Below, piece by piece: positions 36,959-58,704 of a stretch of DNA of 64,000 bases. Position 1 is the stretch's first letter. Each line of letters starts with the position of its first letter. The translations under genes and the position numbers were made by a program. The stretch is from Thermodesulfobacteriota bacterium (GTDB lineage: Bacteria > Desulfobacterota > DSM-4660 > Desulfatiglandales > Desulfatiglandaceae): the NCBI GenBank assembly GCA_030837545.1, contig JAUPKI010000006.1, positions 4,665 through 68,664 of the forward strand, in the 5' to 3' direction. The notes below the pieces were generated by a model. The model made no database searches, was not told the DNA's origin, and saw only the letters and a list, made by a program, of their open reading frames with translations.

Positions 36959-37126
36959 CTAAAATTTCACCTTGGGGGCCTCCTGCCGGTCCTTCGGGAC
37001 CTCAAAGAAGGTCGCTTTTTCAAAGCCGAACATCCCCGCGATGATGTGGGTGGGGAAATGTCGTATCGCGATGTTGTAGGTTTTGGCCACTTCATTGAAC
37101 CGCATGCGCGGCAACTTGCGGAGAAG
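36959..37126 (-). pseudogene. LemA family protein, C-terminal remnant only (about 55 codons)
   Basis: My own translation of the minus strand gives LLRKLPRMRFNEVAKTYNIAIRHFPTHIIAGMFGFEKATFFEVPKDRQEAPKVKF*. This matches the conserved LemA C-terminus (RxxYNxxxxxYNxxIxxFPxxxxAxxFGF). It is bounded upstream by an in-frame stop, and no N-terminal part is present. Confidence 0.6.
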
Positions 37127-37180
37127 TCAGTGCGCCTTACCGGAAATGATCTGGAACCATCATCATGCAGGGGTCCCGTT

Positions 37181-41914: not shown

Positions 41915-43249
41915 ATGCCCGTATCGACGTTCAAGTCCATCGCAACTGAGAAGGAAAACCTGGAGCGCATCCTCGACAATCTTTCAGAGGGGATCATCGC
42001 CCATGACAAGGAGCGGCGCATCCTCTTTTTTAACCGGGCTGCTGAAGACATTACAGGTTATCAGCGAAAGGATATCCTCGGAAGGGACTGCCATGAGGCC
42101 TTTGGCAGACCATTTTGCGGCGACCGCTGTTCCTTCAAGGATGGCCCCCCTGATTCCCTTGAACACGCCACATATCCCCTGAACATCTTCACGCCGGAAG
42201 GGAAGCTGCGTCGTATCGAGATGCGGGTGACTGGGATGCTGGACCATGACGGCGCCTTTGTCGGCGTTCTGGCCTCTTTCAGGGATCTGACCGAGCTGAT
42301 CGGTTTGCGACTGCAACTTGTTGAACTGACCCATTTCGGGATTGTGGGGCAGGATCCCAAGATCATGCAGATTTTCAGGGAGATTCGGGACCTGGCGACC
42401 AGCGACTATCCGGTATGCATTACGGGTGAGACCGGTACCGGAAAGGAGCTGGTGGCCAATGCCATTCACGACGAGAGCCTGCGGGCCGGCAAACCGTTTG
42501 TGCCGGTCAATTGCGGGGCCCTGCCTGAGGGCCTGCTGGAAAGCGAGCTGTTCGGGCACGTCAAAGGGGCCTTTACCGGGGCAGTGCGGGACAAAAAAGG
42601 TCGCTTTGAGATGACCGACGGCGGCACCCTTTTCCTGGATGAGGTAGCGGAATTGCCCAAGACGGTCCAGGTGAAATTGCTCCGGGTCCTACAGGAAGGG
42701 ACCTTTGAGCGGGTGGGGGGCGAAGAGCGTATTTCTGTAGATGTGCGGATCATTACCGCCACCAACAAGAACCTGAAGCGCGAGGTGGAGAAGGGGAATT
42801 TTAGGGATGATCTTTACTACCGTATCAATGTGGTCCCGATCCATATGCCTCCCCTCCGTGAGCGCAGGAGCGACATCCCGGTTCTGGTGGCCCATTTCCT
42901 CCGCAGGGCCGCGGAACAGGGACAGGAAAGCCCCGGATTTTCAAAGGAGGCGATGACTGCGATGGAAGATTATGCCTGGCCTGGAAATGTCCGCGAGCTT
43001 CAAAGCGCAGTCCGTTTCGCCCTGGTGAAGGCAAGGGGCCGGATGATTCGGCCGGAGTACCTTCCTCTGGAACTTAAGGAATGGTTAGAGAGACGGCGAG
43101 GTCTTTACGGCCCCAAAAGAAAACTGGACCCTGACAACGTGAGGACAGCCCTCACCCATACCGGGGGCAATAAGGCCAAGGCCGCCCGGCTTCTGGGGGT
43201 GGGCCGGGCCACGCTGTACCGATTTTTGGCCGATATGCCCGATTTATGA
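41915..43249 (+). CDS. sigma-54-dependent transcriptional activator (PAS sensor, AAA+ domain, Fis-type HTH; no receiver domain)
   Basis: 444 aa. PAS domain (LSEGIIAHDKERRILFFNRAAEDITGY), Walker A GETGTGKE, GAFTGA motif and C-terminal HTH KAKAARLLGVGRATLYRFL. The PAS core carries C-x8-C-x3-C (CHEAFGRPFCGDRC). Confidence 0.95.
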   Translation: MPVSTFKSIATEKENLERILDNLSEGIIAHDKERRILFFNRAAEDITGYQRKDILGRDCHEAFGRPFCGDRCSFKDGPPDSLEHATYPLNIFTPEGKLRRIEMRVTGMLDHDGAFVGVLASFRDLTELIGLRLQLVELTHFGIVGQDPKIMQIFREIRDLATSDYPVCITGETGTGKELVANAIHDESLRAGKPFVPVNCGALPEGLLESELFGHVKGAFTGAVRDKKGRFEMTDGGTLFLDEVAELPKTVQVKLLRVLQEGTFERVGGEERISVDVRIITATNKNLKREVEKGNFRDDLYYRINVVPIHMPPLRERRSDIPVLVAHFLRRAAEQGQESPGFSKEAMTAMEDYAWPGNVRELQSAVRFALVKARGRMIRPEYLPLELKEWLERRRGLYGPKRKLDPDNVRTALTHTGGNKAKAARLLGVGRATLYRFLADMPDL

Positions 43250-43319
43250 TGGGGTGACTGTTCTCCAGATGAAAGGGTGGCAGGGAAATAGCGATCCAAC
43301 CGGATCAGGCAGGACGGTA

Positions 43320-43362
43320 GTGTCTCATGAAACATTTCTGTTTCATATAACGAATGAGACAC
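43320..43362. promoter_or_regulatory. nested perfect palindrome (GTGTCTCATGAAACA-N4-TGTTTCAT-N7-ATGAGACAC), candidate enhancer/operator
   Basis: Read directly. The outer arms TGTCTCAT/ATGAGACA reuse the 8-mer seen again at 43596..43603. Confidence 0.5.
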
Positions 43363-43585
43363 TCCTCGCATGCCTGTTCGTTTTCAGCATTCCTCGCGGC
43401 ACAAACGCCGATCATTAACCCAACCTAATTAAATTAAAGCAATATTTCTCCTTCGCCTTCAGGCAAATCGATCGCGAGCAGCGCCGTCGCCATCTTTTTG
43501 CAGCGTCAGCAGCGCTGTCGGAACGTCCTTTGAATGTTTGGGGATCTGCCGCAATATCGAAGGCTTATGAACCATCGAATTGACC

Positions 43586-43603
43586 GAGACACTATTGTCT
43601 CAT
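43586..43603. promoter_or_regulatory. palindrome GAGACA-CTAT-TGTCTC(AT), candidate UAS about 115 nt upstream of the -24 element
   Basis: Read directly. The distance is typical of bacterial enhancer-binding-protein sites. Confidence 0.5.
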
Positions 43604-43707
43604 TCATGCGCTCCCCGAACTCGCCTCATGGGAGATCCGATGGGATGATATTATTTAACTGCCTATTATCTATAGCTATTTTAATTTTTTCACTTTGGAT
43701 GGACGTG

Positions 43708-43724
43708 TTGGCACAGAACCTGCC
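43708..43724 (+). promoter_or_regulatory. candidate sigma-54 (-24/-12) promoter TTGGCACAGAACCTGCC
   Basis: TGGCAC at 43709..43714, 5-nt spacer, CTGC at 43720..43723 (GG-N10-GC spacing is exact). About 40 nt upstream of the ATG at 43763 and immediately downstream of the EBP gene. Confidence 0.6.
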
Positions 43725-43762
43725 TATTTAAAAGCCTAAACTGATCAGACCGCTCCGGAGGC

Positions 43763-43972
43763 ATGATGATGAGACCCTGTGATGAAAGCATCAAGAAAAC
43801 CCTTGGCCTTGTGGATACCATGCTGGAAATGGCCGATGAAGGAGACGAGGTACGGGAAGACAGCGGGTGCGGCGTGCTGTTTGGGGTACTCAGGGATTCC
43901 GCATTCAAATTAAAGAGGCTGGCGGAGGCCGAGAGAGACGCCCATAAACGGAAGGGCTGGTGGGAAGAATAG
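43763..43972 (+). CDS. hypothetical small acidic protein (69 aa)
   Basis: ORF with GGAGG 4-8 nt upstream. First gene after the -24/-12 promoter. No family recognised. Confidence 0.55.
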   Translation: MMMRPCDESIKKTLGLVDTMLEMADEGDEVREDSGCGVLFGVLRDSAFKLKRLAEAERDAHKRKGWWEE

Positions 43973-44035
43973 GGAGGGGCTGACGGCCTCCAACGTGGGC
44001 AGCCACGAGAAAAACCTCGAAAGGAGGCGGAACTG

Positions 44036-44392
44036 ATGATGGGATTAGCTGAATTAAGAAAAAACCGACATCTTATCGATGCGATAGATTGGGACATGAG
44101 TCCTGAGGAGGCGGTCCGTCTATACCTTGAATGGGGCAACAACTGGAGCCGGGGGTATCGAATGATCAGGTCAAAGGAGGACGAGAGCTATTATTTTGTC
44201 CTCAATACCTGGGAAGAGGTTCCAGTCGTTTACTTTATCCGGAGGGCTTCGGAAGGAGCCATAGAGCTTGCCCGTGTTGAGGTGCCGAAGCGTCTAAGTG
44301 AAACGGTGGATCAGGGGAGAGGCATTCACAGGGGAATATACGCGGTTGAAGATGAGTTGCGGGACTGGCTCAGGGAGGAATTGGATGCATAA
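44036..44392 (+). CDS. hypothetical protein (118 aa)
   Basis: ORF preceded by AAGGAGG. No family recognised. Confidence 0.6.
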   Translation: MMGLAELRKNRHLIDAIDWDMSPEEAVRLYLEWGNNWSRGYRMIRSKEDESYYFVLNTWEEVPVVYFIRRASEGAIELARVEVPKRLSETVDQGRGIHRGIYAVEDELRDWLREELDA

Positions 44393-44430
44393 CGTTCGGT
44401 CGGTCGATCGTTATCATAAGGAAGGCAGAT

Positions 44431-44613
44431 ATGGGAAAAATCATTTTGGAGGCCATGAAAAAGGCGGGAAAACCTGTAAGACCAGGAGACATTGCAAAAA
44501 TCTTGGGGATTGACAGCAAAGAGGTTTCCAAGGCGATCAGCACGCTGAAGGAAAAGGGGGAGGTCCTATCCCCCAAAAGGTGCTATTATTCTCTGGCGAC
44601 GGACGAGCAATAA
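44431..44613 (+). CDS. small winged-helix DNA-binding-like protein (60 aa)
   Basis: MGKIILEAMKKAGKPVRPGDIAKILGIDSKEVSKAISTLKEKGEV resembles a minimal MarR-like wHTH. Confidence 0.55.
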   Translation: MGKIILEAMKKAGKPVRPGDIAKILGIDSKEVSKAISTLKEKGEVLSPKRCYYSLATDEQ

Positions 44614-44625
44614 GGGGAGACGGCC

Positions 44626-44835
44626 ATGGCGACACCTGAAGAGATGTGGCAATGCCAGACAACGAATTGCGGATATATCTACAATCCGGACAAGGGAGAT
44701 CGAAAGGGAAAGATCCCCAAGGGGACCCGTTTCGAGGACCTGCTGGAAGACTGGAAGTGCCCGGTATGCGGGGCATCCAAAAAGAATTTCAGGCCATTGG
44801 GCGGACCAGGGTCCGTGGCAGCCGAAGGGCGTTGA
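44626..44835 (+). CDS. rubredoxin-like protein with atypical first Cys pair (C-x4-C ... C-x2-C)
   Basis: 69 aa. [18 protein letters not shown]...[23 protein letters not shown] is colinear with rubredoxin but has CQTTNC instead of CxxC. Confidence 0.8.
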
Positions 44836-44961
44836 TGAAGGGACGCTGGATGGCCTAAGTGCAGTTATTTGGTTAAAGGCCCTTTATGTCCCTGAGCTAA
44901 ACCAGTCCCGATGGATGGGGGAATGTGAACCAATCACACACGTGAAAGGAGGGAGAGACGA

Positions 44962-45534
44962 ATGAGCTTGAAAGGAAGCGAGACTGAAAAGAACCTGTTG
45001 ACCGCCTTTGCAGGGGAATCCCAGGCGAGAAACCGATATACCTATTTTGCCAGCCAGGCCAAGAAGGAAGGATTCGTTCAGATGTCCGCCATCTTCGAAG
45101 AGACCGCCAACCAGGAAAAGGAACATGCCAAAAGGCTCTTCAAATTTTTAGAAGGGGGTGAGGTGGAGATAAGAGCGGCCTTTCCGGCCGGGGCAATCGG
45201 AAATACATTAGAAAACCTCAAGGCCGCTGCGGCTGGGGAGAACTACGAGCATACCGAGATGTACCCAGGCTTTGCTGAAACGGCCAAGAGAGAGGGGTTC
45301 GATGCCATTGCCGCGGTGTTTCTGGCGATTGCCGTTGCCGAAAAACAGCACGAGAAGCGATACAATGACCTCGCTGCCAATATTCAGGCAGGCCGTGTTT
45401 TCAAGAGGGATTCGGAGACTGTATGGCGATGCAGGAACTGTGGGTATATCCACATCGGAAAGACTGCGCCAGAGTCATGTCCCGCCTGTGCCCACCCGCA
45501 GGCGCACTTCGAGCTCCTGGGAGAGAATTATTAG
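44962..45534 (+). CDS. rbr: rubrerythrin
   Basis: 190 aa. Diiron four-helix bundle (EKEHAKR, EKQHEKR ExxH motifs) plus a C-terminal rubredoxin-like CRNCGY...CPACAHP. Confidence 0.95.
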
Positions 45535-45597
45535 GGATTCAGGGATTCAGGAATTTAGGGATTTAGGAATTCAGGGATTTAGGGATTGAAGGATTTT
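45532..45597 (+). repeat. degenerate tandem AGGGATTY word repeats (about 8 units) starting at the rbr stop codon
   Basis: Read directly: tagggattcagggattcaggaatttagggatttaggaattcagggatttagggattgaaggattt. Confidence 0.8.
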
Positions 45598-45726
45598 TGC
45601 GGGAGGAATCCTGGGTTGCTGCTATGCCGGACGGAAAAATGGTGCGGCTTGCATTTGGAGACCGGTTCGCGTAGATTTAAGGTGGAGATCACCGCTGATT
45701 AACCTATTTATTGAGGAGGTAACGAC

Positions 45727-46101
45727 ATGGCACAGAAGTTAGAGGTTTACAAGTGTGAAGTATGCGGGAATATCGTGGAGGTCGTTCACGGGGGCAAAGG
45801 AGAATTGGTGTGCTGCGGCAAGCCAATGGTGCTTCAGAAGGAAAATACCGTGGACGCTGCCAAGGAAAAACATGTTCCTGTGGTCGAAAAGGCCGCTGAT
45901 GGACTCAAGGTGAAGGTGGGGAATGTGGCCCACCCCATGGAGGAGAAGCACTTTATTGAATGGATAGAGATCATTGCTGACGGAAAGGCCTATCGCCAGT
46001 TTCTCAACCCGGGCGAGGCGCCGGAGGCCTTGTTCGGGCTCAGCGCCGGCCAGATCACGGCCCGGGCCTATTGCAACATCCACGGTCTCTGGAAAGGATA
46101 G
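45727..46101 (+). CDS. dfx: desulfoferrodoxin (2Fe superoxide reductase)
   Basis: 124 aa. N-terminal desulforedoxin motif [13 protein letters not shown]...LVCCGKPM and SOR centre II motifs ([22 protein letters not shown]). Confidence 0.95.
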
Positions 46102-46154
46102 TCTGGCCCACCCGGAATGGCTGAGTGGGTTTTTGCGAGCGACAGGAGAATGAC

Positions 46155-46625
46155 ATGTTATCGAGCAAGATGGACAACCTGTTGGTCAATTTGGCGAAAA
46201 TTGAACGAGGTATTTCCAGGATTTACGAATACCTTTCCAAACAGGAGGCCTTCACGCCCCCTGTGAGGCGTTTCTGGAAAGCTATCATGGAAGAAGAAGA
46301 AGTACACGAGAAGATCTTCAAGGATATCCGTGAAAGGGCCAGGGCCGACGATTCATTTGAGATTGAGATCGGCACGGATCTGGATGAGCTGAAGGCCTTT
46401 GTTGAAAAACTGAACGTGCTCCTTTTGGATATAAAAAAGTCGAATGTCTCTGAGTCCGAGGCCTATTCGTTTGGCGCAACCATAGAGGCTGAAATCGACG
46501 AGGCGAATTTTTTGAAGAGGGTTAAAACCAAGGATCCCGAAATGTCTAAAATGCTCAATCGGATCGATTCGGGGACCCAGAAGCATCGGGTGATGATGGT
46601 CAATTATTTACGAGGCATAAGTTAG
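46155..46625 (+). CDS. ferritin-like / rubrerythrin-fold protein of unknown function
   Basis: About 156 aa from MLSSKMDNLL. All-helical, with one ExxH (EEEEVHEK) and conserved Glu positions, so only a partial diiron ligand set. The track start at 46125 precedes a weak hairpin and is unlikely. Confidence 0.6.
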   Translation: MLSSKMDNLLVNLAKIERGISRIYEYLSKQEAFTPPVRRFWKAIMEEEEVHEKIFKDIRERARADDSFEIEIGTDLDELKAFVEKLNVLLLDIKKSNVSESEAYSFGATIEAEIDEANFLKRVKTKDPEMSKMLNRIDSGTQKHRVMMVNYLRGIS

Positions 46626-46754
46626 CCTTCCCGGATTTGATGCAGACGAACAGACGAGAGTCACCGTCGGCCCTCGGACTCGATCCTCGGGGGCGTGAAT
46701 CAGGACCGCGGCAGGCAGGCCTCCCTAACCAGATCGAAAAGGAGGTAGGTCGAA

Positions 46755-46907
46755 ATGGCAGAGTGGAAGTGTAAGGAATGCGGGTATACCGTCAAAGAGG
46801 ATGTGCCGCCAGAGATATGTCCCATCTGCAAGAAAAAATGCGAATTTGTCGATACAACCTGCTATATACCGGACTGCGGCAAAACCGGTCAGGACCCACG
46901 GCTTTAG
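46755..46907 (+). CDS. small rubredoxin-like zinc-ribbon protein (50 aa; below the ORF-track cutoff)
   Basis: My own translation: MAEWKCKECGYTVKEDVPPEICPICKKKCEFVDTTCYIPDCGKTGQDPRL*. AAGGAGG lies 8 nt upstream. The CxxC...CxxC knuckles resemble the rubrerythrin C-terminal domain. Confidence 0.65.
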   Translation: MAEWKCKECGYTVKEDVPPEICPICKKKCEFVDTTCYIPDCGKTGQDPRL

Positions 46908-46936
46908 CAGGACTCAAAAAGGAAGGAGGCTTCAAT

Positions 46937-47119
46937 ATGTCAAAAAGGAAATACCGTGTCAGGGCCGAATGCCCCCAGTGTGCGTGTGGGGATGTCAGTT
47001 TTCTGGGCCCCGAGAAACTGCGGGAGAAGTTCATCGGGGACGAAAAGGAGATCGATATCCTTTGTCCCCTCTGCGGAACCAAACATAAAGGAATTGTCGA
47101 AGAGGTTAAAGACGAATAG
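46937..47119 (+). CDS. small Cys-rich zinc-ribbon-like protein (60 aa)
   Basis: MSKRKYRVRAECPQCACGDV...ILCPLCGTKHKG. GGAAGGAGG lies 7 nt upstream. Internal start within track ORF 46778..47119. Confidence 0.6.
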   Translation: MSKRKYRVRAECPQCACGDVSFLGPEKLREKFIGDEKEIDILCPLCGTKHKGIVEEVKDE

Positions 47120-47131
47120 GAGGAGAGGCAA

Positions 47132-47572
47132 ATGGCAAAGGCATTGATTGTCTATGCATCAAGGACCGGTTCAACCCAGAAGATTGCCGACCTAATCGCC
47201 GAAGGCATTCGCATCAGCGGAAGAGAGGCTACGGTCGCTAACGTCACCGGGGTCAAGAAGGTGGAAGACCTGCAAGGCTATGACGCATACGTCTTCGGGT
47301 CTGCAACCTACCACGGAGAGATGATGCAAGGCATGAAAACCATGCTCTTCCTGGCGGAGAAGACGGGCCTTGAAGGAAAGGTGGGGGGCTCTTTCGGCGC
47401 CTTTGGATGGAGCGGCGAGGCCCCGGGACGCATCTTCGATACGATGAAGAACGTTCTGAACATGAAAATGGTGGCAGGGCCGTTGAGGCTCAAATCCGCT
47501 TCACTGGGGGGCGGTATTCAAATGGCCCAGGATTATGGGCGTGACATCTACAAAAAGATGGCCTCATCTTAG
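47132..47572 (+). CDS. flavodoxin family protein
   Basis: 146 aa. Starts ALIVYASRTGSTQKIA (FMN phosphate loop) and contains GSATYHGEM and FGAFGWSGEA. Confidence 0.9.
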   Translation: MAKALIVYASRTGSTQKIADLIAEGIRISGREATVANVTGVKKVEDLQGYDAYVFGSATYHGEMMQGMKTMLFLAEKTGLEGKVGGSFGAFGWSGEAPGRIFDTMKNVLNMKMVAGPLRLKSASLGGGIQMAQDYGRDIYKKMASS

Positions 47573-47612
47573 GCCTCTCACTGGATGATGATCATCAGAA
47601 AGGAGTGGCGCC

Positions 47613-47801
47613 ATGACGACGACACCGCAGCACTGCCCCGGATGGGAGCAATTTAAAAACCTGAAGACATTTACCTGTAAATGCCCCAATTGTGGAAAAG
47701 AGAAAGAGATTTTTTCAGATGAGTTTAACAAGCCGCACATCTGTTCCGGATGTGGAAAAGAGATCGATTTTACCCAGTGTACGTTGGATTCAGGGAAATA
47801 G
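47613..47801 (+). CDS. small Cys-rich protein (62 aa; CP..., CKCPNCG, CSGCG)
   Basis: ORF with an AGGAG-containing upstream region. Two zinc-ribbon knuckles. No family recognised. Confidence 0.55.
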
Positions 47802-47812
47802 GAGACAACATC

Positions 47813-47974
47813 ATGGATAAATATGTCTGTTCGGTATGCGGGTATGTCTATGACCCGGAGCAAGGAGACCCGGATAACGGCATCGCCGCCGGGACGAAAT
47901 TCGAGGACCTCCCGGATGACTGGGTCTGTCCGGTCTGCGGGGCTGACAAAGAACTGTTTGAGAAAGAATCGTAA
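47813..47974 (+). CDS. rubredoxin
   Basis: 53 aa: [51 protein letters not shown]. Canonical rubredoxin. Internal start of track ORF 47750..47974. Confidence 0.95.
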
Positions 47975-47995
47975 GGCAACAGATAAGGGAGAGGA

Positions 47996-48445
47996 ATGGA
48001 CCAGGACAGCATTCTTGTCCGGTGCGGTCGTTGCGGCACAAAGAACAGGGTCCCCAAGTCCCGACTCAACCAGGGACCGGCATGCGGAAGGTGTAAATCG
48101 CCGCTCTCAGTCGGACAGGGCCTCGACAGACCTGTTGACATCACAGACAACGCGTTTGATTCAGAGGTCCTTTCCGCTGCCGGTCCGGTCCTCGTGGATT
48201 GTTGGGCCCCCTGGTGCGGGCCGTGCCGCATGGTGGGGCCCGTGCTTGAACAACTGGCCCGGGAATATGCAGGTCGGGTCAAGATCGCCAAGCTGAATGT
48301 GGATGACAATCCGCGAATTGCTTCGCGCTATGCCATCCGGAGCGTCCCGACCATGCTCCTCTTTAACAAGGGAGAAATGGTCGACAGCATGGTCGGCGCC
48401 CTTCCCAAGCAAGAGATCGAACGGCGCCTTCGGCCGCTCCTTTGA
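47996..48445 (+). CDS. thioredoxin with N-terminal zinc-finger extension (Trx2/TrxC type)
   Basis: 149 aa. N-terminal CGRCGTKN...CGRCKSPL followed by the WAPWCGPC active site. Confidence 0.93.
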
Positions 48446-48465
48446 AAGGAACAGGGCGTTTGCGT

Positions 48466-48792
48466 ATGGAAAACTCAATCCCTTCCGGCAAGCCCCAATG
48501 CCCCGACTGTGTCCAATGCCAGATGTGCAGCAGGGCCCGATGCCGTATCTGCCGGAAAGGAGATCATGCGACATTATCTCCGCAACCGGGGATCGGCCTT
48601 ACCCACGGGGCGTATCTTCAATGGAAGCGGGAGCGGGACGCGCAGGTGTCTGGCCCACAGGAGCAAAAACGGTCAACATTGAAAGAGTGTAAGTTATTCT
48701 TGTTCCGGACGTTCAATGGCCAGGCATCGACGGGTGGGGTCGTGCGTATTTATCCGCACATTCTGAGCAGTCAGACTCGCCTGTGCGAATGA
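48466..48792 (+). CDS. possible Cys-rich hypothetical protein (uncertain)
   Basis: ORF MENSIPSGKPQCPDCVQCQMCSRARCRICRKGD... It has a weak RBS and its last third runs through the REP-like element, so the end, or the whole ORF, may be spurious. Confidence 0.25.
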   Translation: MENSIPSGKPQCPDCVQCQMCSRARCRICRKGDHATLSPQPGIGLTHGAYLQWKRERDAQVSGPQEQKRSTLKECKLFLFRTFNGQASTGGVVRIYPHILSSQTRLCE

Positions 48793-48806
48793 ATTCGCAC
48801 CTACAG
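48735..48806 (+). repeat. composite REP/BIME-like element (two hairpin units)
   Basis: Sequence gggtcgtgcgtatttatccgcacattctgagcagtcagactcgcctgtgcgaatgaattcgcacctacagg. Its reverse complement aligns almost base for base with 53607..53680. Confidence 0.8.
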
Positions 48807-48857
48807 GCACAGGGCCAACGAAAAAAGGTTAGACTCAAATGGACAACGGGGGGTTGA

Positions 48858-49109
48858 ATGGATCATTCGGTAAAGATGTATTCACTGAGCACCTGCGGCC
48901 ATTGCAAGGCAACGAAGAAGCTCTTGAATGAGTGCCAGGTCCAGTATGAGTTTACGGATGTGGATCTGCTCGAGGGAGAAGAGCGGGCAGCCATACTGGA
49001 AGACGTCAGGAAATGGAACCCAAACTGCTCTTTTCCAACCATTATCATCGGAGAACGGGTCATTGTTGGATACAAGGAAGATGAGATCAGGGAGGCGCTG
49101 GGGCTATGA
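48858..49109 (+). CDS. glutaredoxin-like protein (YruB/NrdH-like, CGHC active site)
   Basis: 83 aa. KMYSLSTCGHCKATKKLL and FPTIIIGERVIVGY. Confidence 0.88.
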   Translation: MDHSVKMYSLSTCGHCKATKKLLNECQVQYEFTDVDLLEGEERAAILEDVRKWNPNCSFPTIIIGERVIVGYKEDEIREALGL

Positions 49110-49432
49110 ACGAGGTGGAAACCCTTTACAAGACATTGAAGACGGCGCAGGAGCCTAAGGGATACCTGTTCAGCACAGACAAGGAAAGAGTCCATGAACT
49201 CCTGGACGGGCTCATCGTCAATAAAAAGCGTTATGGCTATATGTGCTGCCCATGTCGGCTGGCGTCGGGCGATCGAGAAAAGGACCGGGATATCCTCTGC
49301 CCGTGCGTCTACAGGGAAGACGATGTGAAGGAATATGGGAGTTGCTACTGCAACCTCTATGTTTCAAAGGGATGGAACGAGGGGAAGGTCCCCCGTATCT
49401 ATGTCCCCGAAAGACGGCCGTCTCCCTTCTAA
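49106..49432 (+). CDS. ferredoxin:thioredoxin reductase catalytic-subunit-like protein
   Basis: 108 aa. CCPCR...LCPC...GSCYCNLY matches the FTR-beta CPC/CxC [4Fe-4S]-disulfide signature. ATGA overlap with the glutaredoxin-like gene. Confidence 0.88.
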   Translation: MNEVETLYKTLKTAQEPKGYLFSTDKERVHELLDGLIVNKKRYGYMCCPCRLASGDREKDRDILCPCVYREDDVKEYGSCYCNLYVSKGWNEGKVPRIYVPERRPSPF

Positions 49433-49652
49433 TCTAAAAGGCAGAGGCCTCGCGCAGAGGCGCCCAAGACGCGAAGTTTGAAAGGCAGCTTCCGTTGGAA
49501 TGCGGGGACGGATGTATGAACGCGCGTCCGACACAAACAAGCTGTTTTGGCTTTTTGTGTGTCGGGAGGCATGGGAATCAGGCGCCGTGATGTCTCGAAC
49601 ATCGATTGAAAACCCGTCGGAGTCACTCGCCAGCAAGGAAAGGACTGCATAA

Positions 49653-50621
49653 ATGTTCGTGCTTGGATTACAGGGGAGCCCGAGGATCAAAGGGAATACG
49701 GCCCTGTTGCTTTCGGCCTTTCTCGCTGAGGCGGAGCGGCTCGGCGTTCGCACAGAAGTCATTCATGTTGCCAAGAAGAAGATCACTCCATGCCAGGAGT
49801 GCGGCACCTGCGAAAAAAAGGGGTTCTGCCCGATTGACGATGACATGCAGGACATGTATCCGCTTTTTCGACAGGCCGACCTCATCGTCCTGGCGACGCC
49901 GATCTTTTTTTATGGCCCGACGGCCCAGATGAAGGCGGTGATCGACCGGTCCCAGGCCCTCTGGTCTCGAAAATACGCCCTCGGGCTGGAGGATCCCGGC
50001 AGGAAGTGGCGGCAGGGGTTCCTCCTTGCCGTGGGCGCTACCAGGGGAAAGAATCTCTTCGAGGGGACCATTCTGACGGCCAAATACTTTTTTGATGCGG
50101 TCGGGGCACGGTTTGAAGGGAGCCTCGGATACCGTCAGATCGAGCATTTGGGCGCCATACAAACCCATCCCACGGCCCTGAGTGATGCGGCGCAAAAGGC
50201 GAGGGAGCTGGTAACGCCTCTTATGGATAGAAAGAAGATTCTCTTCGTATGCACGGAAAACGCCTGCCGAAGCCAGATGGCTGCGGCCTTTGCCCAGATG
50301 CATGCTGGAGACCGGGTGGAGAGCCTCAGCGCAGGGACGGCGCCGGCAGCGGAGGTCAACCCGATCATGGTCGCGGTGATGGCGGAAAAAGGAGTGGACA
50401 TGGCCTATCGGAGGCCGGCGTCCATAGAGAGCGCCCTTGCCAGCGGAAGGCCGGACCTGGTGGTCTCCATGGGGTGCGTGGATGCCTGCCCTCTGTTCCC
50501 CGGCCTCCCTGTCGAACAATGGGGTCTGGCAGACCCAGCGGACCAGCCGATCTCCTTTATGCGGGAGATGCGGGACGCGGTCGAGAAGCGGGTGTTGAAT
50601 ATGCTGGAAACGATATATTAA
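49653..50621 (+). CDS. fusion protein: iron-sulfur flavoprotein-like NAD(P)H-dependent FMN reductase + low-molecular-weight phosphatase/ArsC-type arsenate reductase
   Basis: 322 aa. N-terminal half has GSPRIKGNT and a compact CQECGTCEKKGFC (CX2CX2CX5C) motif. C-terminal half has ILFVCTENACRSQMA (CX5R P-loop) and SMGCVDACP. Confidence 0.85.
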   Translation: MFVLGLQGSPRIKGNTALLLSAFLAEAERLGVRTEVIHVAKKKITPCQECGTCEKKGFCPIDDDMQDMYPLFRQADLIVLATPIFFYGPTAQMKAVIDRSQALWSRKYALGLEDPGRKWRQGFLLAVGATRGKNLFEGTILTAKYFFDAVGARFEGSLGYRQIEHLGAIQTHPTALSDAAQKARELVTPLMDRKKILFVCTENACRSQMAAAFAQMHAGDRVESLSAGTAPAAEVNPIMVAVMAEKGVDMAYRRPASIESALASGRPDLVVSMGCVDACPLFPGLPVEQWGLADPADQPISFMREMRDAVEKRVLNMLETIY

Positions 50622-50646
50622 CTGTCTCGTAATACTGTTGACATTT

Positions 50647-50712
50647 CCGTCATGCCGGACTCGATCCGGCATCCAGAAGCAGACTGGATTCCGGCTTCCG
50701 CCGGAATGACGG
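50647..50712. repeat. 66-bp palindromic element with two sub-hairpins
   Basis: Arms are ccgtcatgccggactcgatccggcatccag and ctggattccggcttccgccggaatgacgg. Each arm folds on itself (CCGGA...TCCGG; CCGGC...GCCGG). Confidence 0.8.
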
Positions 50713-50773
50713 GGTAAGGACAATTATGAGACTGTTAATAAAACCGATAACTACTTGAAAGGAGAGCGACAAT

Positions 50774-50932
50774 ATGGATAAATGGGTGTGTTCGGTATGC
50801 GGCTATGTGTATGATCCTGCAGATGGCGATCCGGATAACGGGGTCAAACCAGGGACAGCATTTGAGGACCTTCCGGATGACTGGACCTGTCCGGTCTGCG
50901 GCGCAACAAAGGATTTGTTTGGAAAGGAGTAA
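50774..50932 (+). CDS. rubredoxin (52 aa; below the ORF-track cutoff)
   Basis: My own translation: [58 protein letters not shown] upstream. The stop lies 3 nt before the FDP gene ATG. Confidence 0.93.
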
Positions 50933-50935
50933 GAG

Positions 50936-52120
50936 ATGAAACCGGTCGAGATCGCTGAAGGGATTTACTGGGTGGGCGTCATAGACTGGAATATTCGCGA
51001 CTTTCATGGATATTCCACCTATCAGGGAAGCACCTACAACGCCTACCTGATCATGGATGACAAGATCACCCTGATCGATACGGTCAAGAAGCCGTTTGCC
51101 GATGAACTGCTGGCCAATATCGGCGAGATCGTGGACCCGAAGAAGATCGATTATGTCATCAGCAACCACACCGAGATGGATCATTCCGGAGGACTTCCTA
51201 GGGTCATGCACAAGGTTGGAGAGGATAAGCCCCTCTACTGTTCCAAGATGGGGCAGAAGAACCTCTCAAGGCATTTCGCCCAGGCATGGAATTATCGGCC
51301 GGTGGAGGATGGGGGGCAACTCAACCTGGGCAAAAGGACCCTGACGTTCATGGAGACTCGAATGCTCCACTGGCCGGACAGCATGTTTACCTATGTGAAC
51401 GGAGAGGGCATCCTCTTCTCCAGCGATGGGTTTGGCCAGCACTATGCAGGGCTGGAGCGGTTTGACGACCAGGTAGGGGAAGCCATCATGCCCCATGCCA
51501 AGAAGTATTTCGCCAATATCCTGCTCCTGTACGCCCCCCTCATTCTCAAACTGGTGGATAAGGTGACCGAGATGGGCCTATCCATTCGAATGATCTGTCC
51601 TGATCACGGGATCATCTGGCGAACAGACCCTTCGAAGATCATTAAGGCCTATGTGGACTGGAGCGAGCAGAAGCCCAGGAGAAAGGCCGTGGTGGTCTAC
51701 GACACCATGTGGCACAGCACTGAGGCCATGGCCGAGGCCATTGCCAATGCGTTAGGGGAAGAGGGCGTGGATGCCCGACCGCTTCAACTCAGGACCAACC
51801 ACCGAAGCAACGTGATCACCGAGGTTCTGGACGCAGGCGCCGTGGTGGTGGGCTCTCCCACCCTCAACAACGGGCTGTTCCCCACGGTCAGCGATTTTCT
51901 CACCTATATGAAGGGCCTGAAACCCAAGAACAAGATCGGCGCCGCCTTTGGTTCCTACGGCTGGAGCGGCGAGGCGGTTAAGCTGGTCACTAAGGAACTT
52001 GAAGAGATGGGCTTTAGCATCATCGAACCGGGCGTCAGAGTCCAATACGTCCCGGATGACAAGGCCCTGGATGCATGTCGCGAGCTGGCAAAGAAGATCG
52101 CGGCGGCACTGCCGAAATAG
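50936..52120 (+). CDS. flavodiiron protein (rubredoxin:oxygen/NO oxidoreductase, FprA/ROO type)
   Basis: 394 aa. Metallo-beta-lactamase-like domain with the diiron motif HTEMDHSGG and a C-terminal flavodoxin domain (VVVYDTMWHSTE...GSPTLNN). Confidence 0.95.
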   Translation: MKPVEIAEGIYWVGVIDWNIRDFHGYSTYQGSTYNAYLIMDDKITLIDTVKKPFADELLANIGEIVDPKKIDYVISNHTEMDHSGGLPRVMHKVGEDKPLYCSKMGQKNLSRHFAQAWNYRPVEDGGQLNLGKRTLTFMETRMLHWPDSMFTYVNGEGILFSSDGFGQHYAGLERFDDQVGEAIMPHAKKYFANILLLYAPLILKLVDKVTEMGLSIRMICPDHGIIWRTDPSKIIKAYVDWSEQKPRRKAVVVYDTMWHSTEAMAEAIANALGEEGVDARPLQLRTNHRSNVITEVLDAGAVVVGSPTLNNGLFPTVSDFLTYMKGLKPKNKIGAAFGSYGWSGEAVKLVTKELEEMGFSIIEPGVRVQYVPDDKALDACRELAKKIAAALPK

Positions 52121-52122
52121 TA

Positions 52123-52257
52123 GGCGCAAGGCGTGAGGCGCAAGGTGTGGGGCAGGAGGCAAGAGCTGAAAGGTCAAAGCTGAAATCTCAACTAACCGGT
52201 ATCCGCTAACCGGCATCCAGTATCCAGTGTCAAGCATCCAGCAACCCGTATCCAGTT
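52123..52257 (+). repeat. degenerate word repeats (GGCGCAAGG-type, TCAAAGCTGAAA-type, then CATCCAG-type)
   Basis: Read directly between the FDP stop and the cytochrome gene start. Confidence 0.7.
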
Positions 52258-52271
52258 CCGGAGGTGTAAGA

Positions 52272-53573
52272 ATGGAAGAGAAGCGCATTTTTGCATGGAA
52301 GGGCCGAGTTCTGTTGCTGGCGATGATGGGGATGGTGATAATGGCCGCCGGGCAGGTCTTTGCGGAACCACCGCCAAAAACCGAAGACCCATGTATTGTC
52401 TGTCATCTCAAGGCCACGCCTGGTCTGGCGGCCGACTGGCAGGCAAGCCTCCATTCCCAAGAGGGGATCGGCTGTTCCGAGTGTCACGGTGACAAACACC
52501 AGACCAGCAAGGACTCGAACCTCGCCCGGTTACCCGATGAACATGTCTGCGCAGAATGCCATCAGGAGCAGTTTGACCAGTTTGCCAAGGGGAAGCACAA
52601 TCTCGGGTGGAGTTCCTTGAACGCCCTTCCCATCACCCACATGGAGCCGGATATCCTCATGGAAGGGGGAAAGGGATGCGGCGGCTGCCATAACATGGGG
52701 ATCAAGAGCGAGGCCCAGAAAAAAGACCAGTTGGCAAAAGGCTATCGCTACCAGAACAACTCGTGCGATGAGTGCCACACCCGCCACTCCTTCTCCAAGA
52801 AGGAGGCCCAGGATCCCAGGGCCTGCGAGCAGTGTCACATGGGATATGATCACCCCCAGTGGGAAATGTGGAGCAGCTCAAAGCATGGGACCCGCTACTT
52901 TGTGAAGCAGGGAGGCAACCTGCCGCAAAAGGCCCCGGCGCCCACGTGTCAGCTTTGTCACCTGCCAAACGGGACCCACGAAAACCGGACCGCCTGGGGC
53001 TTTCTGGGCGTGCGCCTGCCGTTGCCTGAAGACAAGCAATGGGCCGCCGATCGGGTGACCATTCTCAAGGCCTTAGGTGTTCTGGATCCGGAAACCGGCA
53101 AGCCCACGCCTCGGCTTGAGGCGGTCAAGACCCTTGATCTGGCCCGTCTGACCGAGGAGGCCTGGAAGACCGAGCGGGAGGCCATGGTCAAGCGGTGTAC
53201 GGCCTGTCATGCAGAGCAGTATGCCCGCCGGCAGCTTGAAATGGCCGATGAGATGATGAAACATGCGGACCGGCTGATGGCCCAGGGGATCGAAACTGTG
53301 GCTGGGCTCTACAAGGACGGCACTATCAAAAAGCCGGATCACTATGCCTTCGCCTATCCTGACTTTCTCTACTTCAAGCAGACCGGCGGTTCCTACATCG
53401 ATCAGGTCCTGTTTCGGATGTATATGAAGTACCGTATGCGCGCCTACCAGGGCCTCTTCCATGTCAATCCGGATTATGCCTACTGGTACGGCTGGGCTGC
53501 CATGACCAAGTCCCTTGGCGAGATCAAAGAACTGGCACAAGCCATGCGGGCGACGCACAAGCCCGCCAAGTAA
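52272..53573 (+). CDS. periplasmic octaheme c-type cytochrome, hydroxylamine oxidoreductase (HAO)-like family
   Basis: 433 aa from MEEKRIF (GGAGG upstream). Signal peptide ...MAAGQVFA. Eight CxxCH motifs: CIVCH, CSECH, CAECH, CGGCH, CDECH, CEQCH, CQLCH, CTACH. The spacing and the WSSSKHG motif resemble HAO-family proteins. Confidence 0.85.
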   Translation: MEEKRIFAWKGRVLLLAMMGMVIMAAGQVFAEPPPKTEDPCIVCHLKATPGLAADWQASLHSQEGIGCSECHGDKHQTSKDSNLARLPDEHVCAECHQEQFDQFAKGKHNLGWSSLNALPITHMEPDILMEGGKGCGGCHNMGIKSEAQKKDQLAKGYRYQNNSCDECHTRHSFSKKEAQDPRACEQCHMGYDHPQWEMWSSSKHGTRYFVKQGGNLPQKAPAPTCQLCHLPNGTHENRTAWGFLGVRLPLPEDKQWAADRVTILKALGVLDPETGKPTPRLEAVKTLDLARLTEEAWKTEREAMVKRCTACHAEQYARRQLEMADEMMKHADRLMAQGIETVAGLYKDGTIKKPDHYAFAYPDFLYFKQTGGSYIDQVLFRMYMKYRMRAYQGLFHVNPDYAYWYGWAAMTKSLGEIKELAQAMRATHKPAK

Positions 53574-53606
53574 GACATTTGGTGCAGCCTTTTTTCGTTG
53601 GCTATC

Positions 53607-53680
53607 CCCGTAGGTGCGAATTCATTCGCACAGCGTGGGCCTAACTGCTCTGAATGTGCGGATGAATCTGCACCTACCAG
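53607..53680 (-). repeat. composite REP/BIME-like element, inverted copy of 48735..48806
   Basis: Sequence cccgtaggtgcgaattcattcgcacagcgtgggcctaactgctctgaatgtgcggatgaatctgcacctaccag. Confidence 0.8.
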
Positions 53681-53785
53681 CCCCCGGCGCCTGGTTATTA
53701 GAGGGTCCGAACAACAAACATTACACAGAAAACATTTTCATGAGGTCGGCCACATGAGATTCGCTGATGATGAGGGCGTTCAGGG

Positions 53786-53980
53786 ATGAGGCAGGTCCCG
53801 GTCATTGATATCCGCGAGTGCTCGGATTGCGGGACGTGCCTGGAACTCTGTCCCGCTGTTTTCAGGAGAAATGATGTGTCCGGGTTCATTGAAATCCTGG
53901 AACTTCCCGAATACCCTGAAGATGAGATTCGGGAGGCCATCAGTTGCTGTCCCAGAGATTGTATAACCTGGGAGGAATGA
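53786..53980 (+). CDS. small ferredoxin (single [3Fe-4S]/[4Fe-4S] cluster type)
   Basis: 64 aa. CSDCGTCLELCP ... CCPRDCI. Confidence 0.85.
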   Translation: MRQVPVIDIRECSDCGTCLELCPAVFRRNDVSGFIEILELPEYPEDEIREAISCCPRDCITWEE

Positions 53981-54018
53981 GAGGTGAGGGATGCGACCGA
54001 GAGCGGGGGGAGAGTGAC

Positions 54019-54957
54019 ATGGAGATAGGAATGATCGGTCTGGGACGGATGGGGATGAATATGGCCAAACGTCTCATGATCGGCGGCCACCGGGTGGTGG
54101 CCTATAACCGGACACCCCGAAAGACAGATATTCTGGCGCGGGAGGGGGCTGTCGCCGCCTATTCCCTCGCAGAGTTGGTCGAGAACCTGCCGCCGGCCCG
54201 CGTTGTATGGATCATGCTGCCCGCAGGTCAACCTGTGGACGACCACCTGGATCAGCTCAGAGAGATCCTCTCCCCCGGAGATGTCGTCGTTGATGGGGGA
54301 AACACCTACTACAAAGACGACCTCCGCAGGCGGCCCCTCCTTTCGGAGAAGGGGATCTCTCTGGTGGATGTGGGCGTGAGCGGCGGCATTTGGGGGCTCG
54401 AAAACGGTTACTGCCTGACTGCGGGGGGACCGGCCGATTGTTGCAGGGAAATTGAACCGGTCTTCAAGACCCTTGCGCCTCCGGGCGGCTATCTCTACTG
54501 CGGGGGCACAGGCGCGGGCCACTTTGTCAAAATGGTCCATAACGGCATCGAATACGGGATGATGCAGGCCTTTGGCGAGGGGTTTGAGATCCTTGAGGCC
54601 TCCCCCTATGCGGGCTCGCTGGACCTGGCAGAGGTGGCACGGGTGTGGAATAACGGGAGCGTCATCCGATCGTGGCTCCTGGAGCTGGCCCAGGACCTGT
54701 TCTCAAGAGATGGAGGTCTCACGGATATAGAAGGATATATCGAGGACTCGGGAGAAGGGCGATGGGCTGTTCAGCAGGCGATAGAGACAGGGGTGGCCGC
54801 GCCGGTCATGGCCCTTTCCCTGATCCGCCGGTTGCGCTCACGGAACCAGGCGCCCTTTTCCGACAGGGTCGTTACCGCCCTCAGGAGAGAATTCGGGGGT
54901 CATTCGGTCCAACCGGCGTCATCTGATGAGAGGGAACCCAATGAAGCCGGAAGATGA
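54019..54957 (+). CDS. gnd: 6-phosphogluconate dehydrogenase, decarboxylating (short form)
   Basis: About 312 aa from MEIGMIGLGRMGMNMA (Rossmann motif). Contains GGNTYYKD, VSGGIWG and GAGHFVKMVHNGIEYG. Confidence 0.92.
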   Translation: MEIGMIGLGRMGMNMAKRLMIGGHRVVAYNRTPRKTDILAREGAVAAYSLAELVENLPPARVVWIMLPAGQPVDDHLDQLREILSPGDVVVDGGNTYYKDDLRRRPLLSEKGISLVDVGVSGGIWGLENGYCLTAGGPADCCREIEPVFKTLAPPGGYLYCGGTGAGHFVKMVHNGIEYGMMQAFGEGFEILEASPYAGSLDLAEVARVWNNGSVIRSWLLELAQDLFSRDGGLTDIEGYIEDSGEGRWAVQQAIETGVAAPVMALSLIRRLRSRNQAPFSDRVVTALRREFGGHSVQPASSDEREPNEAGR

Positions 54958-56521: not shown

Positions 56522-56580
56522 TGGCTCATGGCTGATAGCTCATGGACAGAGCAGCTTATCAGCTCAACAGCTTATGAACT
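56521..56580 (+). repeat. degenerate word repeats (GCTCATGG / AGCTTATSA type) after the zwf stop
   Basis: Read directly: atggctcatggctgatagctcatggacagagcagcttatcagctcaacagcttatgaac. Confidence 0.6.
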
Positions 56581-56621
56581 TACCATCTTTTTTGCCTGGC
56601 AGTCAGAGGACCCGAACCTCT

Positions 56622-57149
56622 ATGGCCGACCCTCACGAACATATGCTCGGCCCTGCCCAATTCCTGGTGGAAAACGTGGACCTGTTGCCAAGGGGGCGGG
56701 CCCTGGATCTGGCCATGGGGTACGGCCGCAATGCAATCTTCCTGGCCCGGGCGGGTTTTGAGGTGGAAGGGATTGATATTTCACCAGAGGCCACGGCCGG
56801 GGCCTTGAAGGCCGCAAATGAGGCCGGGGCTCGCCTGAGCGTTCGCGTGGCCGATCTGGAGGACGGCTACGTGATTGAACCGGGGGCCTATGATGTGATC
56901 ATCTGCTTCAATTATCTCCATCGGGCCTTGATCCCTGAGATAAGGAAAGGCCTTCGCAGCCGCGGGATGGTGGTGTACGAAACCTTCATCGTGGATCAGG
57001 CCCGATTTGGCAGGCCCAGGAATACGGATCACCTGCTTAAGCATAATGAACTGCTGGATCTGTTTCGTGATTTCCGCTGTCTCCGGTATCATGAGGGGTT
57101 GATGGAGACCCACAGGGCCGTTGCCGGCATCATAGCGGAAAAACCCTGA
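56622..57149 (+). CDS. class I SAM-dependent methyltransferase (TehB-like)
   Basis: About 175 aa from MADPHEH. SAM motif I ALDLAMGYGRNAIFLARAGFEVEGIDIS and post-I/II pattern YDVIICFNYLHR. The track ORF starts at 56574. Confidence 0.8.
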   Translation: MADPHEHMLGPAQFLVENVDLLPRGRALDLAMGYGRNAIFLARAGFEVEGIDISPEATAGALKAANEAGARLSVRVADLEDGYVIEPGAYDVIICFNYLHRALIPEIRKGLRSRGMVVYETFIVDQARFGRPRNTDHLLKHNELLDLFRDFRCLRYHEGLMETHRAVAGIIAEKP

Positions 57150-57265
57150 TGCAGAATAACCGCAACCCATCCCGCCAATATAGGCGGGACTCACACAAAG
57201 ACACGAAGACCCAACGTTTTTATAACCACATGCATTTGTTCCTAAAACACAGGAGGTAAGCAACC

Positions 57266-58689: not shown

Positions 58690-58704
58690 CGGCGGCAGGC
58701 TGGC

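Follow-up and report, generated by a model that had tools for sequence, protein, structure and literature searches.

The locus described here lies in a 64,000-nucleotide stretch of contig JAUPKI010000006.1 (positions 4,665 to 68,664, forward strand; assembly GCA_030837545.1) from a Thermodesulfobacteriota bacterium of the family Desulfatiglandaceae, a relative of Candidatus Desulfacyla; the whole stretch is referred to as the window. The host is a strictly anaerobic, sulfate-reducer-type bacterium that carries oxygen- and peroxide-detoxifying genes in one block. This block, the island, comprises 21 same-strand redox-defense genes, ends at 53573 and is separated by a spacer of 513 bp from the gene of a sigma-54 activator, an enhancer-binding protein (EBP) with a Cys-rich PAS domain. 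Its first gene encodes a small protein designated sp69. The same arrangement recurs in dozens of related genomes. Oxygen sensing in strict anaerobes outside Desulfovibrio and Clostridia is poorly known, and the locus presents a conserved and concrete candidate alternative to PerR: a predicted activator, TGTCTCA repeats, a sigma-54 promoter and a target set that across loci spans cytochrome bd, an octaheme cytochrome resembling hydroxylamine oxidoreductase (HAO) and uncharacterized small Cys proteins.

The EBP (444 aa) matches the Pfam families PAS, Sigma54_activat (PF00158, 2.2e-72), AAA_lid_14 and HTH_8, with a Walker A motif, GETGTGKE, at residue 171 and GAFTGA at residue 218. Pfam and motifs agree on the receiver-less PAS, AAA+ and HTH architecture that a sequence-only reading of the window had placed directly upstream of the island. 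A motif scan likewise recovered the PAS core described in that reading, C-x8-C-x3-C with an adjacent His, as C59-H60-x7-C68-x3-C72. The motif DCHxxFGxxFCGxxC is kept in nearly all EBP orthologs of at least 50% identity, and D58, C59, H60, C68 and C72 are invariant in orthologue set A3. A fourth PAS cysteine (CSFC) occurs in about half of the orthologs, the window EBP having CSFK at this place; position C+2 is E61 in the window EBP and E, K, D, V, Q or A in orthologs. The structural model of the domain has a canonical PAS fold (predicted local distance difference test, pLDDT, 84.6); confidence is lower in the E-alpha/F-alpha segment, which contains the Cys triad. A fold search with this model returned generic cofactor-binding sensor PAS domains (DosP, FixL, LOV, NifL), which do not discriminate the cofactor. 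A word-index search with the PAS domain alone yielded fragments and no characterized relative, and the list from a whole-library HMMER search was dominated by multi-PAS kinases. Nine single-stretch PAS matches were inspected; all carry the same DCH...C...C motif, some in other architectures (LMWPc-PAS-AAA+ and GAF-PAS-AAA+). An LMWPc/ArsC-like N-terminal domain is fused to the same Cys-PAS-AAA+ module in relatives P0283, P0207, P0309, P0243 and P0291, and this is the type of domain that is joined to the iron-sulfur flavoprotein (Isf) in the island. Other Cys-PAS-AAA+ relatives (P0280, P0183, L007, L009, L011, L019 and L063) bear a GAF-like N-terminal extension.

The spacer downstream of the EBP gene holds a candidate -24/-12 promoter, TGGCACAGAACCTGCC, where the sequence-only reading had placed one, between the EBP gene and the first island gene. 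It is the sole high-scoring sigma-54-like site in any island spacer, no other good site having been found in the spacers from 43763 to 53573. Two sets of putative binding sites lie upstream. The distal cluster is situated just 3' of the EBP stop codon, about 370 nt upstream of the -24 element, and relatives carry an equivalent array, TGTCTCATGAGACA-N4-TGTCTCA, at the EBP stop codon. The proximal site is a palindrome, and TGAGACA-N3-5-TGTCTCA occurs at -150 to -200 in many relatives' loci. A further sigma-54-like sequence at 53533-53548 scores as high as the main promoter and was rejected: it lies within the 3' end of the cytochrome coding sequence, survives in L003 only inside a gene remnant, and is missing from the corresponding position in L008, L019, L022 and L002. 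Rfam gave no match over the whole window.

One genome per species was scanned, giving 105 loci that encode EBP relatives, of which 80 were fetched (labels L001 onward); the EBP of the closest public locus, L001, is 91% identical to that of the window. Cultured carriers include Desulforhabdus sp. TSK (L034) and Desulfonema limicola, the match for the latter coming here from a metagenome-assembled genome (L048). The system is also present in the complete genomes CP070735, CP070843 and CP070692. Synteny was counted over loci with an EBP identity of at least 62% and at least 2.5 kb of downstream sequence (n = 38). In 33 of these 38, sp69 and/or same-strand homologs of island defense genes lie downstream of the EBP; other genes found there in relatives encode cytochrome bd oxidase, ferritin, thiol peroxidase, a protein of the carbon monoxide dehydrogenase (CODH) family and nitroreductase. 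A sigma-54-like site is present at -140 to -25 of sp69 in 30 of 40 loci, compared with 7.5% of random windows. Half-sites reach a density of 4.82/kb in EBP-sp69 spacers against a background of 0.148/kb, a 33-fold enrichment, and all full sites found in 1.2 Mb (TGTCTCATGAGACA or TGAGACA-N3-5-TGTCTCA; 63 of 63) are located either at the stop codon of the EBP gene or in the 700 nt preceding sp69.

A reverse test started from sp69 homologs instead of the EBP. Five contigs (L081-L085) carry a compact sp69-led operon with no EBP within 8 kb, in the order sp69, winged-helix protein (wHTH), rubredoxin, rubrerythrin, desulfoferrodoxin, two ribbon proteins, flavodoxin, a 61-residue Cys-rich protein (Cys61), Isf-LMWPc, rubredoxin and flavodiiron protein, with gene spacings of 3-139 bp. 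Each retains GTCTCATGAGAC-N5-TGTCTCATG about 150 nt upstream of TGGCAY-N5-TTGGA. Because these operons keep the cis elements without an adjacent EBP, the elements appear to travel with the target operon, as expected for a genuine regulator-target pair. The proposed link between EBP, sites, promoter and defense genes is thus supported by conservation rather than by adjacency in a single genome. The claim of the sequence-only reading that the EBP is wired to the defense genes through sigma-54 is supported by the synteny, the promoter counts, the location of the motifs and the EBP-less operons, and we regard this predicted wiring (EBP, sites, promoter and sp69 operon) as highly probable.

Table 1. 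Features of the EBP gene, the spacer and the island, in window positions.
Feature	Position	Strand	Basis or remark
EBP, sigma-54 activator	41915..43249	+	PAS, AAA+ with GAFTGA, HTH_8; without receiver (Pfam and motif scan)
Distal putative binding-site cluster (upstream activating sequence, UAS)	43320..43362	.	half-sites TGTCTCA / TGAAACA / TGTTTCA / TGAGACA
Proximal putative binding site	43585..43602	.	palindrome cGAGACA-CTAT-TGTCTCA; ~116 nt upstream of -24 element
Candidate sigma-54 (-24/-12) promoter TGGCACAGAACCTGCC	43709..43724	+	~45 nt upstream of likely sp69 start at 43769
sp69, 67 aa, predicted two-helix hairpin	43769..43972	+	invariant C4, C34, E55, H59, GWW (alignments; numbering from 43769 start)
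DVU0772-family protein	44036..44392	+	NCBIfam NF045682, 5.5e-33
Winged-helix protein (wHTH), 60 aa	44431..44613	+	weak MarR_2/HTH_11 match
Rubredoxin, Rdl / Rd-2 type	44626..44835	+	Pfam Rubredoxin 3.2e-19; C-x4-C first knuckle (CQTTNC)
Rubrerythrin (diiron domain and C-terminal rubredoxin domain)	44962..45534	+	Pfam
Desulfoferrodoxin (2Fe superoxide reductase)	45727..46101	+	Pfam
Helical protein, 156 aa, possibly degenerate ferritin/rubrerythrin-like	46155..46625	+	no family match
Rubredoxin-like zinc-ribbon protein, 50 aa	46755..46907	+	found in apparent spacer; conserved in 10 fetched loci; L081 homolog has PF21349
CxxC...CxxC zinc-ribbon protein, 60 aa	46937..47119	+	sequence
Flavodoxin	47132..47572	+	Pfam
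Cys-rich protein, 62 aa	47613..47801	+	found in apparent spacer; conserved in relatives
Rubredoxin 2	47813..47974	+	Pfam
Thioredoxin with N-terminal zinc ribbon (Trx2 type)	47996..48445	+	Pfam
Glutaredoxin-like (48858-49109) overlapping FTR catalytic-subunit-like, FeThRed_B (49106-49432)	48858..49432	+	Pfam
Iron-sulfur flavoprotein (FMN_red) fused to LMWPc/ArsC-type domain	49653..50621	+	Pfam, NCBIfam, motif
Rubredoxin 3 (50774-50932) and flavodiiron protein (50936-52120)	50774..52120	+	3 nt apart; rub-roo type pair
Octaheme c-type cytochrome, HAO-like multiheme family	52272..53573	+	PF13447; 8 CxxCH; N-terminal signal or anchor
Terminator-like hairpin and T-run	53564..53596	+	only one outside coding DNA between 43763 and 53600

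All genes from 43763 to 53573 lie on the + strand, as the sequence-only reading had stated; its description of short spacers throughout holds in part, the true spacers ranging from 3 to 412 bp. Pfam and NCBIfam confirmed most of the products it had named, namely rubrerythrin, desulfoferrodoxin, flavodoxin, the zinc-ribbon thioredoxin, the glutaredoxin/FTR-like pair, the Isf-ArsC fusion, the flavodiiron protein and the octaheme cytochrome; three canonical rubredoxins, the number of rubredoxin-type proteins it had listed, start at 44626, 47813 and 50774. We take the C-x4-C first knuckle of the first of these to be typical of Rdl/Rd-2 rubredoxins; rubredoxin 3 sits in an apparent spacer and is conserved in relatives. 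The list was incomplete, omitting the first three genes (sp69, the DVU0772-family gene and wHTH) as well as the small Cys-rich genes at 46755-46907, 46937-47119 and 47613-47801, all three of which are conserved in relatives. Its ferritin-like protein (46155-46625) could not be confirmed as such: no family was found in Pfam, NCBIfam or PDB, and what remains is a weak similarity, in a single comparison (E = 0.002), to a rubrerythrin-like ORF at the equivalent place in L048. In the FMN_red-LMWPc fusion, the Isf motif C-x2-C-x2-C-x5-C reads CQECGTCEKKGFC. wHTH copies 65-80% identical to that of the window follow sp69 in L001-3, L043, L058, L066 and L081-85, making this the second gene after sp69 in a subset of relatives, and the octaheme cytochrome is the first enzyme gene directly after sp69 in L006, L007 and L010. 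L003 has no octaheme cytochrome gene, yet the last ~150 nt of one remain after its flavodiiron gene (L003 ~10460-10640 against window 53400-53573); because this 3' remnant persists, the gene appears to have been deleted in the L003 lineage.

The head gene, sp69, is usually the first gene after the sigma-54 promoter. Its product matches no Pfam or NCBIfam family; homologs fall into 372 clusters, and those with names are all annotated as "hypothetical". The structural model is a two-helix hairpin of high confidence (pLDDT 93.1). No significant PDB sequence match was obtained, and Foldseek matches all had E > 0.7; those to Rop, an encapsulated ferritin and halves of sulerythrin were set aside as non-significant helical hairpins. 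The close association of sp69 with the system points to a function connected with the sensor or with the initial step of the response. Together with the DVU0772 family, sp69 is a priority unknown in the oxygen tolerance of sulfate reducers and syntrophs.

OrpR (DVU2106) of D. vulgaris Hildenborough, an activator with PAS, AAA+ and HTH domains and no receiver, requires C52, C61 and C65 for redox sensing. By spectroscopy it binds a [4Fe-4S]2+ cluster, proposed to lie in the PAS domain, which mild oxidation converts to [3Fe-4S]1+; the protein works as an activator at low redox potential and loses its activity as the potential increases, and its delta-PAS and Cys-to-Ser variants are constitutively active (Fievet et al. 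2021, PMC8359166). The window EBP shares with OrpR the receiver-less PAS, AAA+ and HTH architecture, the C-x8-C-x3-C spacing, an origin in anaerobic Deltaproteobacteria, and palindromic sites (putative here) with a sigma-54 promoter adjoining the regulator gene. The two differ in several respects. OrpR targets two orp operons only and no defense genes, whereas the neighbors of the window EBP are oxygen-defense genes; the OrpR site GGGCGYRTTTTGCGCCC has no match here with up to three mismatches; OrpR has GAFTDA, whereas EBPs of the window type have GAFTGA or GAFSGA; and in the latter an invariant His follows the first PAS cysteine. No GAFTDA/OrpR-type protein was present among the nine inspected PAS proteins or in the fetched loci. 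The window EBP is evidently not OrpR itself, given that its predicted targets, putative DNA site and GAFTGA motif differ, and the pairing of one Cys motif with different targets could be used to study how opposite outputs might be drawn from a single Fe-S PAS module. Redox or O2 sensing by a Cys-rich PAS domain is supported by the experimental precedent of OrpR.

Other regulators provide partial parallels. PexR of Myxococcus xanthus senses H2O2 through a GAF domain with a Zn/Fe His/Cys/Asp center and drives sigma-54 promoters (Bastida-Martinez 2025, PMC12754779). It resembles the window EBP as an EBP for defense genes with sigma-54 promoters and dyad repeats, and differs in that its targets are ahpC and katB, that it also represses a sigma-A promoter and that its host is an aerobe; PerR or OxyR is frequently present alongside it, and rbr is sometimes nearby (PMC12754779). 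Pfam found no GAF match in the window EBP and hence no GAF sensor of the PexR kind. NorR of Escherichia coli, a sigma-54 activator, senses nitric oxide (NO) through a GAF domain with mononuclear non-heme iron, which derepresses its ATPase. It is an activator of the same type, and its target includes a flavodiiron protein (flavorubredoxin); the sensor and signal of NorR are GAF and NO, whereas the window EBP has a PAS domain. Against the NCBIfam NorR model, the window EBP scored 335.1 bits, below the cut-off of 476, over region 139-436 only. NreB of Staphylococcus and Bacillus is a sensor kinase for oxygen and sulfide with an Fe-S cluster in its PAS domain (PMC13478379). It provides a precedent for a Cys-ligated Fe-S cluster within a PAS domain, and differs in being a histidine kinase of Firmicutes rather than an EBP. 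The Cys spacing of NreB differs from that of the window PAS, the cysteines lying in the same fold region.

With OrpR, PexR and NorR acting as sigma-54 sensors of redox, peroxide and NO, respectively, the "unusual regulatory logic" proposed in the sequence-only reading is overstated: sigma-54 control of redox, peroxide and NO defense is already known in principle. For Desulfobacterota, the searchable literature yielded no paper in which rubrerythrin or desulfoferrodoxin is connected with sigma-54 or an EBP; rubrerythrin, rubredoxin, oxygen and redox go unmentioned in the text of the sigma-54 regulome paper on D. vulgaris, and the term DVU0772 is absent from searchable papers. We found no description of a putative OrpR-like PAS activator wired to a set of rubrerythrin, superoxide reductase, flavodiiron protein and cytochrome bd.

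In anaerobes, defense genes are generally held to be scattered and controlled by PerR-type derepression. The window contains no PerR/Fur-type repressor gene, in agreement with the sequence-only reading: Pfam gave no PF01475 over 24-64 kb of the window, and phmmer with two Fur-family queries gave no match at E <= 10 in all six frames of the window. A PerR gene may lie elsewhere in the genome. In D. vulgaris, the regulon predicted for PerR comprises perR-rbr-rdl, rbr2, ahpC and one hypothetical gene (206199, Table 7 of Rodionov 2004, PMC545781). The control there is by a Fur-family repressor over scattered genes, whereas the window has a predicted activator with sigma-54 over consolidated genes. 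By id arithmetic, we take gene 206199 to be DVU0772. A rubrerythrin, an Rdl-type rubredoxin and a DVU0772-family gene are thus common to both, and here stand in one block behind a putative sigma-54 promoter, consistent with a conserved effector set whose type of regulator has changed. Within the EBP-linked clusters of L041 (4737-5174) and L045 (12091-12507), a Fur-family (PerR-like) gene is present, with thiol peroxidase, ferritin and CODH (Prismane-family) genes and then a nitroreductase-like gene as neighbors, which suggests dual control in some lineages.

Taken as a whole, we consider it likely that the EBP is an OrpR-type redox sensor driving the defense island through sigma-54. Its PAS domain would most likely hold an iron-sulfur cluster, probably [4Fe-4S], on C59, C68 and C72 together with H60 or a fourth ligand, and the state of the cluster would gate the AAA+ ATPase. 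The EBP would bind the TGTCTCA/TGAGACA repeats at 43320-43362 and 43585-43602, contact sigma-54 RNA polymerase at 43709-43724 and open the promoter, whereupon sp69, the DVU0772-family gene, the small wHTH gene and the Rdl-type rubredoxin gene would be transcribed. The transcript may continue through the genes for rubrerythrin, desulfoferrodoxin, flavodoxin, the thiol-redox proteins, Isf-LMWPc, rubredoxin 3, the flavodiiron protein and the octaheme cytochrome as far as the hairpin at 53564. The control that PerR-type repressors exert over rbr, rdl and DVU0772 in Desulfovibrio would in this lineage fall to a sigma-54 activator. Among the components of this reading, an Fe-S cofactor in the PAS domain is, by analogy with OrpR, moderately probable, and the polarity, with the EBP ON when oxidized, is evenly poised. 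More tentatively, a widespread OrpR-like Fe-S PAS subfamily (of Syntrophobacterales, Desulfobacterales and Desulfatiglandales type) may serve as a master switch of oxygen defense whose output is the reverse of that of OrpR, oxidation or loss of the cluster turning it ON, and sp69 may be its dedicated partner, acting as a feedback modulator, a cluster-repair factor or a redox relay factor.

Several observations weigh against this reading. Five orthologous loci have unrelated genes downstream of the EBP, the -12 element is TTGA or TTGG rather than TTGC in many relatives, and rpoN is not in the window. The likeness to OrpR (DVU2106) is one of published motif and architecture; the acidic residue at C+2 noted by the OrpR authors is not conserved in EBP orthologs, whereas H60 is invariant. 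PerR-type control is possible within the EBP-linked family because of the Fur-family genes in the L041 and L045 clusters. With the polarity of OrpR, finally, the operon would be switched off under oxidative stress, and induction by oxidants cannot be assumed for the window EBP because in OrpR the reduced form is ON and the oxidized form OFF.

That polarity defines one alternative: with the same wiring, the EBP would be active with a reduced cluster, and the defense genes would be made pre-emptively during anoxic growth instead of being induced by oxidants. OrpR, the only characterized protein with this PAS motif, behaves in this way, but shutting off superoxide reductase, rubrerythrin, flavodiiron protein and cytochrome bd as O2 arrives is hard to rationalize. 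Moreover, full cluster loss could equally mean ON, because Cys-to-Ser apo OrpR is constitutively active; we consider the alternative unlikely. A thiol switch based on Zn or Fe would suit the Cys3-His set as well: a mononuclear Zn2+/Fe2+ site in place of the cluster would release its metal on thiol oxidation, in the manner of PexR or of a zinc-thiolate switch. The invariant H60 beside C59, the presence of the fourth cysteine in only about half of the orthologs and the Zn/Fe center with which the PexR GAF domain senses H2O2 at sigma-54 promoters agree with such a site; the identical Cys spacing of OrpR, which gives [4Fe-4S]/[3Fe-4S] spectra, argues against it, and it appears improbable. The signal might also be NO, not O2 or redox potential, and the circuit would then resemble that of NorR with a PAS Fe-S domain as its sensor. 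NO reacts with [4Fe-4S] clusters, and the putative regulon includes a flavodiiron protein and an HAO-family octaheme cytochrome. Its most conserved members (rubrerythrin, desulfoferrodoxin, cytochrome bd, ferritin and thiol peroxidase), however, handle O2 and its reduced species, which leaves NO a quite remote candidate.

The extent of the transcript bears on how much of the island the EBP may control. It would govern a short first operon only (43769-44835, sp69 to the Rdl-type rubredoxin gene) if the remaining genes had their own promoters and other regulators, such as PerR or Rex. Spacers of 126, 192, 129, 412, 220 and 152 bp within the island leave room for undetected internal promoters, which also weighs against the favored reading; the Fur-family genes in the L041 and L045 clusters, together with the report that rub-roo of D. 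gigas is constitutive from a sigma-70 promoter, point the same way. On the other hand, rubrerythrin, flavodoxin, desulfoferrodoxin, flavodiiron protein and octaheme cytochrome genes follow sp69 at 3-139 bp in relatives. No sigma-70-like site was found in the island spacers, in a scan that was uninformative overall (8 sites against 7.3 expected from shuffles), and no terminator-like hairpin occurs in any island spacer before 53564. On this balance, confinement of the EBP to the short operon seems rather unlikely, and a single transcript to 53573 is possible, with a chance somewhat short of even.

Several spacers in and next to the island contain repeats. Tandem 7-8-nt repeats fill the spacer after rubrerythrin (45531-45596; AGGGATTC x8) and that after the flavodiiron gene (52122-52256; AGGCGCAAGGCGTG, ATCCAGT x6); in L002, GAGGCRT heptamers follow one another in the equivalent spacer, upstream of 14339. 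At 48728-48836 and 53590-53700, in the Trx2-glutaredoxin and cytochrome-ferredoxin spacers, an element of about 95-110 bp occurs in opposite orientation. It contains the palindrome GTGCGAAT..ATTCGCAC twice, at a distance of about 41 bp (4 matches to the pattern against 0.08 expected), and looks like an extragenic repeat of the repetitive extragenic palindromic (REP) or miniature inverted-repeat transposable element (MITE) type. The 412-bp Trx2-glutaredoxin spacer also contains an ORF of uncertain coding status (48466-48792; 108 aa, Cys-rich, MENSIPSGKPQCPDCVQCQMCSRARCRICRKG...), which is conserved solely in the three closest relatives, L001-L003, at 69-80%, below its neighbors, and whose 3' part overlaps the palindromic element.

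Directly after the island, genes for a single-cluster ferredoxin, a 6-phosphogluconate dehydrogenase-like protein and glucose-6-phosphate dehydrogenase (53786-56521) could form an NADPH-regenerating module; the flavodiiron gene is followed by a glucose-6-phosphate dehydrogenase gene in L002 and by ferredoxin and 6-phosphogluconate dehydrogenase genes in L003. Farther downstream (56574-59484) lie genes for a TehB-like methyltransferase, a rubrerythrin-like protein of 167 aa, a glyoxalase-family protein and a HEAT-repeat protein. The redox block may extend to about 59.5 kb, because homologs of the HEAT protein lie inside the EBP-linked clusters of L007 and L053. About 4 kb upstream of the EBP are genes for a cyclic nucleotide monophosphate-binding protein with a C-terminal CxxC...CxxC tail (37716-38321, - strand) and a stand-alone GAF protein (37046-37711, + strand); no link of these 37046-38321 genes to the island was found. 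Elsewhere in the window, the aspartyl-tRNA synthetase gene (5032-6850, - strand) is split into two overlapping ORFs (5786-6850 and 5032-5829), seen in translations only, which suggests a frameshift or an assembly error.

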